Shown: positions 4,224 to 20,700 of the stretch, one piece after another | Numbering within the stretch: position 1 is the stretch's first letter | Layout of the letters: the number at the start of each line of letters is the position of its first letter | Assembly: GCA_964016885.1 (NCBI GenBank) | Contig: CAXHJY010000819.1 | Location: 1-25,279, forward strand | Direction: 5' to 3' | DNA from: Eledone cirrhosa | Lineage: Eukaryota | DNA: 25,279 nucleotides | Program-made: the position numbers and the translations under genes | Notes under the pieces: model-generated | Seen by the model: only the letters and a program-made list of their open reading frames with translations | Database searches by the model: none | Told to the model about the DNA's origin: nothing

Positions 4224-4273
4224 TTATATATATTTCAAAGGTACCAAAACTTTGTTACGTTCTCATCAGATAA
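4224..4273 (-). ncRNA. Hammerhead-like motif (family A, minus copy)
   Basis: ttat CTGATGA gaacgtaacaaagttttggtaccttt GAAA tatat ataa. Confidence 0.55.
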
Positions 4274-4591
4274 AATACAAAGTTTGCTTTATAAATGTTG
4301 ACATACCCAAGAAAAGATACCTTACCGGTTCAAGTTTTTCTTGGATAGTGAAGGAAGAGAGAGGAAAAGTCAGATATTTCAAATTATTAAGATCAATATG
4401 CAAATTAGATTGAGGTATAGGGATGAAAAAACGTTATTATTAGACGCTATGCAGAATTTAAATAATTAGGATATATGTATGTATAAGTTGGGGGAAAAAA
4501 AAAGAAAGAAGAGCTTTATTTACGTTAATTTAAAAGGAATTAAGGTATCTTTTCTTGGTTATGACAAAATTTATAAAACAAACTTTGTATT

Positions 4592-4641
4592 TTATCTGAT
4601 GAAAGCGTACCAAAGTTTTCGTACCCTTGAAATATATATAA
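4592..4641 (+). ncRNA. Hammerhead-like motif (family A, plus copy)
   Basis: ttat CTGATGA aag-c-gtac-caaagttttc-gtac-c-ctt GAAA tatat ataa. Confidence 0.6.
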
Positions 4642-4892
4642 TAGAATAATTATGGTTTTATAAATATAGTTTTCATTTACTTAATATCATTGAATATTAT
4701 ACTCCAGAAAACTGTCGAGTACTCTGAATCAGTTATAAACATTTATATTTGTTAAACTACCAATAAAATAAATATATCTTTTGCTTATACACACACACAC
4801 ACACACACACACACATATATATATATATATATATTATATATATATATATAATGAAGGAAAAGAGAAGAAGAGTCAGATATATATACATATAT

Positions 4893-5055
4893 AGTGAAGG
4901 TATGTGACTGAGTGGTTAGAGAATCGGATTCACAATCGTAAGGTTGTGAGTTCGGTTCCCGAACCGGGCGATGTGTTATGTCCTTCATCAAGAAACTTTA
5001 TTTCACGTTGATCCTTCTACGTGGAGTTACGACCAATAGATAGCATTAGCAATTG
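4893..5055 (+). mobile_element. tRNA-derived SINE
   Basis: A-box-like gTGACTGAGTGG, B-box-like gaGTTCGGTTCC, then a tgtccttcatcaagaaacttt body. Second copy at 288-420. Confidence 0.8.
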
Positions 5056-5074
5056 AATGTTGATATATGTATAT

Positions 5075-5300
5075 ATGTAAAAGGTAAACAGAAATAACAA
5101 CACAATCGGTACAGTATATGGAAGGGATATATTAGGTTAACCCTGGATATAGAAGAGGGTGATAACGTTTCCGACGCTAGTCCTTCATCAGAAGAAATAA
5201 TGAGAAATAAGATGATAGATTGAGGGGACGGGCGGGATGGAATTGGAAAAAAATGTCTTTAGATCAAAATAAGAGGTACATTCATGTTGACATTTCTCGG
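5075..5300 (-). mobile_element. Family D PLE-like 3' end with minimal hammerhead at 5162-5195
   Basis: Reverse complement aligns with 9800-10025. Minus strand reads tctt CTGATGA aggac tagc gtcg GAAAC GTT a. Confidence 0.75.
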
Positions 5301-5646
5301 AAAACTGTTGATGCTGGCGTTTTGTGTATAATTTTTTTTTTTTACAAAAGTGAATGATGGAGTGCGTCTACCTGAAATGGAAAAAGAAAAACCTTTTCGT
5401 ATAATGAGCTATACTTGTGCGCGTGCGTATGCATGCATGTGTGTGTGTTTATACGTCCGTACGAAGCTAAGAAGAAATGTGTGTGTATATGTAAGTAAAA
5501 GAGTGTGTGTGTGCATGTAAGTACGAAGCTATGAGCAAAATTATGTTAACCTAAGGGTGCGTATGTGTGTAAACGGAGCTGTGAAGGGAAAAGTGGAGTG
5601 TGCTTATTTTATCAATCTCCGCCTATTCCGTATATTGTGCAACAAT

Positions 5647-5972
5647 CACCACCTGTTGGTCACCTGTAAACACAGGTATATTTGTAAAACACCCCACCTA
5701 TAAACAAAGGTATATTTGTAAAACTCCCCACCTGGAAATACAGGTATATTTGTAACAATCCCCACCTGTAAACACAGGTATATTTGTAAAACTCCCCACC
5801 TGGAAACACAGGTATATTTGTAATGATCCCCACCTGTAAACACAGGTATATTTGTAAAACCCCCCGCCTATAATCACGGGTATATATGTAACAATCTCCA
5901 CCTGTTCCTTACCTGTAAACACATGTATATTTGTAACAACCCCCAGCTGTTCCTTACCTGTAAACACATGTA
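5647..5972. repeat. ~30-31 bp minisatellite (cacctgtaaacacaggtatatttgtaaaacnccc), about 10 degenerate units
   Basis: Repeated unit with internal ACCTG...CAGGT inverted repeat. Confidence 0.9.
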
Positions 5973-5977
5973 TAACC

Positions 5978-17995: not shown

Positions 17996-18044
17996 TTGTA
18001 GATCTTGTTTTTGTTTTTATATGTCTTAACTCCAGACACACAGA

Positions 18045-18175
18045 CTCTCTCTCTCTCTCTCTCTCCTCTCTCGCTCTCTCTCTCTCTCTCTCTCTCTCTC
18101 TCTCTTTTTCTCTCTCTCTCTCTCTCTCTCTCTCTCTCTCTCTCTCTCTCTCTCTCTCTCTCTCTCTCTCTCTTT
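18045..18175. repeat. (CT)n microsatellite
   Basis: Direct inspection. Confidence 0.95.
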
Positions 18176-18497
18176 CACACACACATATATACACACAAAC
18201 ACACACCATATATACATATATGCCTCTATGTGTGTGTGTGTTTTTTTCTAGCTCTGAAGAAATCATTACTATAATATAATAAAGACCTCTATAGTCTACT
18301 TACGTATTAAGTCCTTTTGTTACCACACAGCACCCGATATATAACGAGATTCCACCAAATATATACATTTGTATGTGTGTGCGAGTGTGTGTGTGTGTGC
18401 GTGCGTGTATGCGTTTGTATAATTACAGGAGGCCAAATATATTGAATTTCCTTAAATATTTACTTCTGCAAACACTATGCACATTTCAGTACCCATG

Positions 18498-18593
18498 TTG
18501 CGTGACATCATCAGGTGTACATTGCGTAATAGCTGTGATATCATCAGGTGTAGATTGCGTGACATATTCAGGTGTACATTGCGTAATAGTTGT
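18498..18593. repeat. Short 57-bp (24+33) tandem duplication
   Basis: ttgcgtgacatcatcaggtgtaca / ttgcgtaatagctgtgatatcatcaggtgtaga repeated about 1.7 times. Confidence 0.8.
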
Positions 18594-18769
18594 ATACCAA
18601 GGGAAAGAAGGTAAACTCTAAGGAAACTTGTAAAGAAAAAAGTGTGTGTTTAGGATTTTGACCCAGAGACGAACGAAGCAGCATGTTGTTACAGTACTAT
18701 ATATATATATATATATATATATATATATATATATATATATATATATACTGGCAACGTTCCTGAATCTTT

Positions 18770-18915
18770 CTGATTCTTCTTTAGTTTCTCATTCTCTTTC
18801 CTGATGAGGTGCCGAAACCTTAAAACTATTTTCCTACTATATCAAGTGTAAAATTAATACATTTCTTCATTGTACTGTGTCGTTGGCTTTGTATTTCTGT
18901 TTGCGTTTTGCATAC
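18770..18915 (+). mobile_element. Diverged family D-related 3' end with ultra-short hammerhead core
   Basis: tttctcattctctttc CTGATGA ggtgcc GAAAC ctta, followed by ctatatcaag...tgtac...tatttctgttt as in 9890-10020. Confidence 0.6.
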
Positions 18916-19427
18916 AGATATATATATATATATATATATATATATATATATATATATATATATATATATATAAGTATGTATATATATATATATATATATA
19001 TATATAAGTATGTATATATATATATATATATATATATATATATATATATATATATATATATATATAAGTATATATATATATATATATATATATATATATA
19101 TATATATATATATATATATATATATATATATAAGTATGTATATATATATATATATATATATATATATATATGTATGTATGTATGTATATATATATATATA
19201 TATATATATATGTATGTATGTATGTATGTATATATATATATATATTTATATATATTTAGGGAGTGTAACGTTAAGTGACCGTAGATTCACCCCGGTGTGC
19301 ATTCGATGTTTAGATACACGTCTGTGAATATATGTATATATATGTATGTATATCTATATATCTACACATATACATGTATGTATATATATATATATATATA
19401 TATATATATATATATATATATATACAT

Positions 19428-20488
19428 AAATACTTGTCGAGTGCTTTTATATCAGTTATAAATATTTACTAGTTGTAACCCAACAATTTAAATATAACTT
19501 TCCATATATATGTATATATATATATATATATATATATATTATATATAATATATATATATATATATATATATGTATATATATGTATATATATATATATAAT
19601 ATATATATATATATATATATATATATATATATATATATATATATATATATATATATATATTATATATATATATATATATGTATATATATATATATATATG
19701 TATATATATATATATATATATATATATATATATATATATGTATATATATATATATATGTATATATATATATATATATATATATATATATATATATATATG
19801 TATATATATATATATATATGTATATATATATATATATATATATATATATATATATATATATATATATATATATATATATATATATATATATATATATATA
19901 TATATACATATATATATATATATATATATATATATATATATATATATATACATACATATATATATATATACATACATATATATATATATATATACATATA
20001 TATATATATATATATATATATATATATATATATATATATATATATACACATATATATATATATATACATATATATATATATATATACATATATATATATA
20101 TATATACATATATATATATATATATACATATATATATATATATATACATATATATATATATATATATACATATATATATATATACATATATATATATATA
20201 TATATATATATATATATATATATATATATATATATATATATTATATATATATATATACATATATACATATATATATATATATATATATATTATATATATA
20301 TATATATATATTATATATATATATATACATATATATACATATATATACATATATATATATATATATATATATATATATATATATATATATATATATATAT
20401 ATATATATATATGGAAAGTTATATTTAAATTGTTGGGTTACAACTAGTAAATATTTATAACTGATATAAAAGCACTCGACAAGTATTT
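19428..20488. repeat. ~1.06 kb palindrome: perfect 78-bp inverted arms enclosing a (TA)n array
   Basis: 19428-19505 is the exact reverse complement of 20411-20488. Confidence 0.9.
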
Positions 20489-20700
20489 GGAGTATATTTA
20501 CGATATTAAATACTGCCAATTCAACTTTTCAAATACAAGTCGATGTTATACGGTATGTCAAATTTATTTATCTATAAAACTGTTTATATTGTATTTTGTC
20601 TGAGGAAGGCATAGCATATTGTTAATATGATATCCCTGAAATATATATAGTGAAATAGATATGGTTTTATAAATATAGTTTCCATTTATTTAATATCGTA
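20411..20700. mobile_element. Family A element: inverted 3' extension (20411-20512, -) joined to plus-strand hammerhead part (core 20600-20641)
   Basis: CTGAGGA aggcatagcatatt gtt aatatgatatccct GAAA. 14-bp overlap tacgatattaaata / tatttaatatcgta. Confidence 0.75.

Follow-up and report, generated by a model that had tools for sequence, protein, structure and literature searches.

Hammerhead motifs of a probable high-copy Penelope-like element family in Eledone cirrhosa share an ordinary predicted cleavage junction and a C·C mismatch in helix II

Here we analyzed a 25,279-nt stretch of DNA from Eledone cirrhosa (GenBank assembly GCA_964016885.1, contig CAXHJY010000819.1, positions 1 to 25,279; hereafter, the window), in which four copies of a repeat had been predicted from the sequence alone to encode a non-canonical hammerhead ribozyme subtype. 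We consider it probable that these copies are type I hammerhead motifs in which helix I has 8 bp, helix III is an 8-nt palindrome and the UH junction is normal, and that they likely lie in the pseudo-long terminal repeat (pLTR) of a high-copy Penelope-like element (PLE). Cleavage after A17 is predicted to be weak and to require the pairing of two copies into a double hammerhead. The copies also share a C·C mismatch in helix II, the role of which is weighed below.

Results

Four hammerhead-like copies of a high-copy family

Like some animal genomes, the window has a high AT content and many TA, CA, CT and TAG microsatellites. It contains 20 CTGANGA sites over both strands, 12 of which have GAAA 6–45 nt downstream. 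A scan for such cores recovered all four copies named in the original prediction, together with the helix II sequences quoted there (C3 at 4596(+), 4269(−), 14619(−) and 20600(+)). Cores with at least six of the first seven helix II positions paired numbered four in the window and zero in each of 200 block shuffles; the four hammerhead-like copies are thus more than chance would yield. They are not independent, since 4269 and 4596 are two arms of a single insertion (91% identity across 162 nt), and the window therefore represents about three lineages.

CUGANGA, GAAA and UH occur in type I order in all four copies, with U16.1 and A17 placed by the +9 helix I register described below. Core and GAAA are intact in each, and N7 is U, U, U and G in the window and C or A in read-derived variants; every base thus occurs at this position, whereas the remaining core is constant, which is the pattern that a hammerhead should show. 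The original assignment to the type I hammerhead motifs of the PLE kind is supported.

Relatives of the family were collected by matching reads from 4 of 16 sequencing runs to 14490–14760 (271 bases) at 80% likeness. The matches comprised 5142 contigs in X1 (organism A), 48 in X5 (organism B), 17 in X6 (organism C) and 27,772 raw reads in X14 (organism A). X14 is a restriction-site-associated DNA sequencing run, so its piles come from single loci. The copy number of the hammerhead family is therefore high, and at least three organisms carry it. Read-derived changes given below are from a table listing 40 of 91 differences.

A longer helix I restores an ordinary predicted cleavage junction

We tried 13 helix I registers per copy, each defined by the offset of N1.1 from A15.1. 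The +9 register gave the longest run, with eight contiguous pairs in all four copies, whereas the originally predicted TTAT/ATAA pairing (+6) gave four; over the eight columns, 100% of cells paired in the former and 75% in the latter. Read on the hammerhead strand, each of the four varying helix I pairs in the +9 register goes from A-U to G·U. In this register, A15.1-U16.1 closes an 8-nt helix III that is followed by a single A17; the helix III palindrome, ATATATAT, is perfect over 8 nt in three of the four copies, and in all four the triplet before the predicted cut is AUA, with a single H17. AUA is the natural cleavage triplet of the eggplant latent viroid ELVd (+) hammerhead, where it was the slowest of the four tested (PMC1636495).

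The reads agree in several details. Position 14574, where the window copy at 14619 has a C that sets it apart from nearly all read-derived relatives, is U in 99.9% of X1 depth, and 14575 is G or A (36% A); the relatives therefore read AUAURUAU, a sequence that can pair with itself whether or not its central pairs are U·G. Helix I sites 14568 (39% of X1 depth) and 14621 (5%) vary between A and G opposite U in the +9 register, and one loose end in X1 forms eight Watson-Crick helix I pairs in this register. Two unrelated hammerhead motifs of the window, at 13903(−) and 18514(−), also have the +9 register and 8-nt palindromes.

Predicted energies of the double hammerhead follow the same direction. 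For the four copies they were −15.0, −10.6, −16.0 and −14.0 kcal/mol in the +9 register versus −1.2, +3.2, −12.8 and −6.6 kcal/mol in the +6 register, an advantage of 3–14 kcal/mol.

The original prediction had combined a 4-bp helix I, a 4-nt ATAT palindrome and two unpaired nucleotides (AT or GC) in place of H17 into a non-canonical hammerhead, a version that we regard as highly improbable. Its register does pair in all four copies, an AU-rich repeat allows helix I to slip, and for the copy at 20600 the +6 register is slightly better when the monomer is folded without helix III. It nevertheless amounts to a 3-nt mis-registration: the +9 register gives twice the pairs, a standard UH junction with a single A17 and the more stable dimer, the GC case (the copy at 14619) depends on the one rare change at 14574, and the motifs at 13903 and 18514 share the longer register. 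In the better-paired +9 register the atypical junction disappears; this junction was the chief claim to novelty, and it is refuted on sequence grounds, the predicted cut site being ordinary. More generally, AU-rich hammerheads permit slipped registers that mimic a new junction, which calls for caution.

Helix II changes in pairs around a kept C·C mismatch

In all four copies, helix II begins directly after A9 and runs for three pairs, a C·C mismatch and 3–6 more pairs, as originally described. A register offset by one, with an extra base after A9, was discarded, as it breaks helix II in every copy. Among the nine pairs of the four-copy alignment, four show double-sided change, one shows one-sided change, two are invariant and two fail to pair in some copies; in no copy is the C·C column paired. 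The claim that helix II covaries among copies thus holds, with compensatory change at four of nine pairs around the kept mismatch. Column shuffles attained four double-change pairs in 9 of 500 cases, a count that is not a probability because the rows are few and related. Over the helices of the alignment, which has only four related rows, 95% of 80 cells were paired, with four double-change pairs, versus 35–56% in slid controls; helix III needs a second copy as its partner. The 10.1-11.1 closing pair is purine-pyrimidine in each copy (A-U in three, G·U in one, G-C in none).

Reads also show helix II changes at partner sites, namely A-U to G-C at 14584/14611, C-G to U-A at 14588/14607 and A-U to G-C at 14608/14587, the change at 14587 coming from a loose end; the table gives these sites separately, not their linkage.

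The C·C is kept in all six variants with both sides visible, the four window copies and two from reads, which were assembled by hand from loose ends and the difference table. One X6 contig reads CUGACGA with AGG-C-AUG...UAU-C-CCU, its five differences accounting for linkage; one X14 pile has the core end AAGA with AGG-C-AUA...UAU-C-CCU, its linkage being inferred. Two further loose ends show the 3′ C only. The X1 tally contains five G>A places, all among the differences listed, and no G>C or G>T, so neither C would vary at 3% in X1, provided that the tally has the same threshold; this says little, since 28 of the 33 G sites of 14490–14760 show equally little change. X14, X5 and X6 hold six, one and one G-site changes beyond those listed, any of which could touch a C.

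Across window copies and reads, nine of the 12 positions 10.1–10.6 and 11.1–11.6 vary, and the constant ones are the two Cs and U11.1. The chance of two named positions falling within three of twelve is 10/220, or ~0.05 (calculated by hand, for positions chosen post hoc). The 40 nt after helix I are 83–98% identical between copies, and helix II with loop II is far more divergent yet paired (4603–4628 vs 4649–4688 and counterparts); given that identity, plain inheritance could account for the C·C. We put selection acting on the C·C at near even, and a required role for it is doubtful. A high-copy PLE hammerhead family in which the C·C at helix II position 4 is a required docking point, for the end of helix I or for an element protein, switching a self-locked monomer to an active double hammerhead, is likewise unlikely. 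Were the C·C required, the family would offer hundreds of natural variants of a ribozyme gated by a protein or by dimer formation.

Predicted folding and proposed action

Cleavage by the copies is a prediction, and inactive folds are predicted to compete with it. In the minimum-energy monomer fold of three of the four copies, the U-rich helix I strand pairs with GAAAUA of the core. For the copy at 14619, the cofold minimum has the double-hammerhead shape with a slipped helix III. The folding model ignores the Mg2+-dependent hammerhead core.

In the action that we propose, tandem or full-length element transcripts would carry the hammerhead motif in each pLTR. A monomer would lock itself as its U-rich 5′ strand of helix I pairs with GAAAUA; two copies would then join via their palindromes and exchange helix I strands, freeing the core, perhaps with help from the element's protein. 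A weak cut after A17 would follow only once the two had formed a double hammerhead. Helix II would be selected for shape, not sequence, and the C·C would be a family trait, inherited or weakly selected and unneeded by the core. The 5′-truncated and inverted 3′ ends would be written in by reverse transcription. The window copies themselves are probably passive, because they are inverted rather than tandem.

Alternatively, the family could be a relic, a formerly active PLE hammerhead that no longer cuts, with template switching in the quasi-palindrome copying the helix II arms and the C·C kept by descent; we consider this improbable. C:C mismatches are poorly repaired, which would offer another ground for the survival of the C·C in a relic. 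Consistent with a relic, the 40 nt that follow helix I diverge far less than helix II does, the folding predictions favor inactive structures, and 28 of 33 G sites of 14490–14760 carry no listed change in X1, so that two unchanged Cs are unremarkable alone. Arm copying should, however, erase mismatches and G·U pairs, and the C·C, a second mismatch and G·U pairs persist. A relic would also leave unexplained the fixed core with its four-letter N7 and a helix I that varies solely from A to G opposite U. The dispensability of hammerhead cleavage for insertion of the Anolis Poseidon element PAc in vitro again suits a relic (PMC11167929).

The carrier is likely a Penelope-like element

Coordinates of the family features are given in Table 1.

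Table 1. Insertions, hammerhead copies and associated features of the family in the window.
Feature	Position	Strand	Details
Insertion 1	4163–4789		in TA/CA microsatellite; minus arm 4163–4324 joined to longer plus copy; plus 3′ end ~90 nt further
Insertion 2	14420–14748		minus copy with long 3′ end and truncated inverted plus copy
Insertion 3	20414–20697		in (TA)n; minus long 3′ end only (~20414–20506) and plus hammerhead copy with short 3′ end
Hammerhead copy 1, type I motif	4588–4648	+	core 4596–4602; GAAA 4629–4632
Copy 1, helices I and II	4588–4595/4641–4648 (I); 4603–4628 (II)	+	C·C 4606/4625
Copy 1, helix III and cut	4632–4639 (palindrome)	+	H17 = A4640; predicted cut 4640/4641
Hammerhead copy 2	4217–4277	−	inverted arm of copy 1's insertion; C3 4269; C·C 4259/4240
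Copy 2, helix III	4233–4226 (palindrome)	−	H17 = 4225
Hammerhead copy 3	14563–14627	−	C3 14619; C·C 14609/14586; helix III 14579–14572; H17 = 14571
Hammerhead copy 4	20592–20657	+	CUGAGGA core; C·C 20610/20634; second mismatch G·A
Copy 4, helix III	20641–20648 (palindrome)	+	H17 = 20649
Broken fifth copy	14641–14748	+	inverted partner of copy 3; ~85 nt upstream sequence and 5′ hammerhead half
Reading-frame end	4383–4469	+	GIY-YIG-like C-terminus (by eye); stop 127 nt before hammerhead core, insertion 1
Short 3′-end piece	3499–3544	+	98% identical to end of 4163 arm (4163–4210)
Short 3′-end piece	19428–19505	+	99% identical to 20414 end (20414–20490)

Across the three insertions, family copies are 5′-truncated, lie in inverted pairs and end at two 3′ points, and all three insertions adjoin TA or CA runs. 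Loose ends at 14518–14530 in X1 and X5 enter (TA)n, with a depth step at the short end. PLEs in general are known for copies truncated at the 5′ end, for a truncated partner in inverted orientation and for a tail of 30–40 bp on one side only (Craig et al. 2021, PMC8557442), and an insertion bias toward (TA)n is described for Naiad, Hydra and Neptune elements (PMC8557442). Because truncation, inverted partner, one-sided tail and (TA)n layout match the PLE pattern, a PLE carrier is likely.

In insertion 1, a reading frame ends in IIKINMQIRLRYRDEKTLLLDAMQNLNN and a stop upstream of the hammerhead, and its I1, R11, E15, L26 and N27 are spaced exactly as in the PoseidonFr and Nematis_Cr rows of Fig. 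S2 of PMC8557442. The 27-residue spacing pattern has a single match in the six frames of the window (4383–4463), and 20,000 shuffles of the 271 upstream bases gave 0 matches in strict form and 1 in loose form, for a pattern written after the frame sequence and the Fig. S2 rows had been seen. Since the pattern is post hoc and the database searches were blank (see below), we treat the GIY-YIG end as a lead, not proof. On this by-eye match, the frame end is a good candidate for the C-terminus of a GIY-YIG endonuclease, and we propose that the carrier is a PLE with a C-terminal endonuclease.

Membership in Naiad was considered because of its (TA)n targeting and the "HHR_core" notes in the supplement of PMC8557442. 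It was set aside, as the supplement yielded no matching consensus, in line-wrapped text where a match could be missed, and the Naiad endonuclease is N-terminal.

A miniature DNA transposon, with the inverted arms serving as its terminal inverted repeats and with a hairpin that acts in the DNA and contains a hammerhead core by chance, is barely credible. Insertion 1 has the look of one, its 162-nt inverted arms being 91% alike and set within a TA run; however, arm ends and joins differ among the three insertions, an endonuclease-like frame stops just upstream in one of them, and only one of the two strands has the core, helix I, helix III and UH that together fit a hammerhead.

The broken fifth copy has its C3 at 14725(+) and is broken off within loop II. 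Its upstream sequence at 14641–14677 departs from that of insertion 1 beyond ~45 nt, and one frame there reaches a stop ~50 nt before the core; subfamilies of the hammerhead family may therefore differ in their 3′ untranslated region. The two short 3′-end pieces each face their neighbor 3′ end to 3′ end over a TA-rich stretch, and could have arisen by fold-back copying that was primed within (TA)n, by re-insertion nearby or as an artefact of the assembly.

Evidence against the proposed reading

Besides the post hoc spacing pattern, several results weigh against a PLE hammerhead that cuts as a double hammerhead. The 55-residue frame had no match in Pfam, in phmmer searches of the 90% and 50% protein sets or in Atlas, a weak blank given so short a query. 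No reverse transcriptase was seen in the window, which holds 3′ family fragments only and whose other open reading frames (ORFs) were not scanned for one. An Rfam scan of 4200–4720 and 20520–20700 found no hammerhead model at E ≤ 10. G10.1-C11.1 and the extra base after A9, both traits of the PLE hammerhead consensus, are absent from all four copies. As for the folds, the double hammerhead lies 9–14 kcal/mol above the cofold minimum in all four copies, predicted monomer pair probabilities of helices I and II are 0.0 for the copies at 4596 and 4269, and the +6 register is favored by 0.9 kcal/mol (−4.5 vs −3.6 kcal/mol) when the copy at 20600 is folded alone and without helix III. The window copies being inverted, a read-through transcript would not hold two hammerheads on one strand.

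Rfam on the whole window likewise gave no hammerhead among the 150 of 348 matches listed, these being microsatellite-driven microRNA matches far under gathering scores. The ordinary minimal motifs at 5191 and 9905 are also absent among the 150 matches listed, which makes the Rfam non-match a weak test. A 27-base family pattern had 0 matches in viral contigs and 0 in genome contigs. Two loci from a metagenome pattern scan were discarded as chance, both lying within apparent bacterial protein-coding regions without family flanks.

Other repeats in the window

At least three hammerhead families occur in the 25 kb. A second repeat family, at 9905(+), 5191(−) and 18801(+), has an ordinary minimal PLE-type hammerhead with an extra base after A9 and an ACGU palindrome; the 10.1-11.1 pair is broken in both fuller copies, and the copy at 18801 is decayed. 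The motifs at 13903(−) and 18514(−) have U·U at the helix II base, an 8-nt palindromic helix III and a helix I of 6 and 4 bp, respectively, and resemble entries in the Hydra-clade list of PMC8557442. Further fold-back elements lie in TA runs at 3650–4030, 9553–9662, 9340–9460 and 13640–13750; that at 9553–9662 is a near-perfect hairpin centered on two opposed CTGANGA words. A tandem array at 10940–11660 consists of about five 144–147 bp units, each with CTGAGGA and no GAAA within 45 nt.

Discussion

The family described here adds one to the many known PLE hammerheads. What mainly distinguishes it is the kept C·C, the role of which is conjectural. Our literature search turned up no report of this family, nor of a C·C that is conserved in helix II of hammerheads; the survey by Lunse, Weinberg and Breaker (2017), reportedly the largest of short-stem-III PLE hammerheads, may already contain the family.

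The PLE hammerheads of Cervera and de la Peña (2014; D. virilis, D. willistoni, Aedes and shrimp; PMC4209133) are alike in their CUGANGA and GAAA, open helix I, long helix II and palindromic helix III, as well as in flanks that are U-rich on the 5′ side and AU-rich on the 3′ side, in the scatter of their truncated copies and in closely spaced pairs on opposite strands. The consensus there combines a lengthened helix II and a palindromic helix III with two further traits, an extra base after A9 and G10.1-C11.1, and the family here has only the first two; the extra base and the G-C pair are >80% traits with listed exceptions (PMC4209133). By our own reading of the sequences in its Fig. S3, A10.1-U11.1 closes helix II in D. 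willistoni, Marsupenaeus and Latimeria(2), and the extra base is missing in Marsupenaeus and Saccoglossus(2). Helix I is 8 bp here versus 4–5 bp in the minimal PLE form, and the palindrome is 8 nt here, whereas by our own count most of those in that list have 4 or 6 nt and a few have 9–10 nt (PMC4209133).

As for helix II, the original prediction had proposed a subtype defined by a long, mismatch-containing stem. Both features are present, and helix II reaches 13–14 pairs in some variants; as grounds for a subtype they are weak, because published PLE hammerheads already have a helix II of 7–8 bp and two of them, Clonorchis(2) with U·U and S. purpuratus(1) with C·A, have three pairs followed by a 1 × 1 mismatch (PMC4209133, Fig. 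S3). The D. virilis hammerhead also has a bulge in helix II (PMC4209133). The family here differs from these in the identity of its mismatch, C·C, and in the retention of that mismatch from one subfamily to another.

Hydra-clade hammerheads (PMC8557442, File S2) have a helix III of 3–4 bp with a 1–3 nt loop, frequently have A or U at position 17 and no G10.1-C11.1, and occur with (TA)n, as here. Most have a mismatch or weak pair at the helix II base, whereas the mismatch here is at position 4, and the endonuclease-end spacing is nearer to the Poseidon and Nematis rows than to the Hydra rows (PMC8557442). Of the family motifs sought in the text of that supplement, four gave unrelated-looking matches only and one gave none.

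The Anolis Poseidon element PAc (PMC11167929) is similar in having a pLTR hammerhead, a C-terminal endonuclease, two 3′ end points that leave a "tail" and AT-rich targets. The activity of its hammerhead was measured and needed the element's protein. The PAc ORF starts at stem II (PMC11167929), whereas here the ATG in the core meets a stop within 16 codons in the copies at 4596 and 14619; the tail is ~90 nt here versus 30–40.

Animal non-LTR retrozymes (PMC7229834; bioRxiv 10.64898/2026.07.22.740005) are likewise short repeats of high copy number and low GC content that carry a type I hammerhead. Their units, however, follow one another in tandem, head to tail, and have the canonical contacts between loops 1 and 2, whereas the copies here are inverted and truncated; the window contains no head-to-tail tandem units of the family, its copies being single or inverted.

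PLE hammerheads are described as having no known tertiary contacts and as poor cutters alone (PMC4209133; PMC11167929); minimal forms cleave poorly even as dimers, and the high variability of hammerheads in PLEs has been called unexplained (PMC4209133). A helix II that changes fast yet stays paired around a fixed mismatch would offer a ready natural series on the activation of PLE hammerheads, and a weightier one if the C·C proves necessary.

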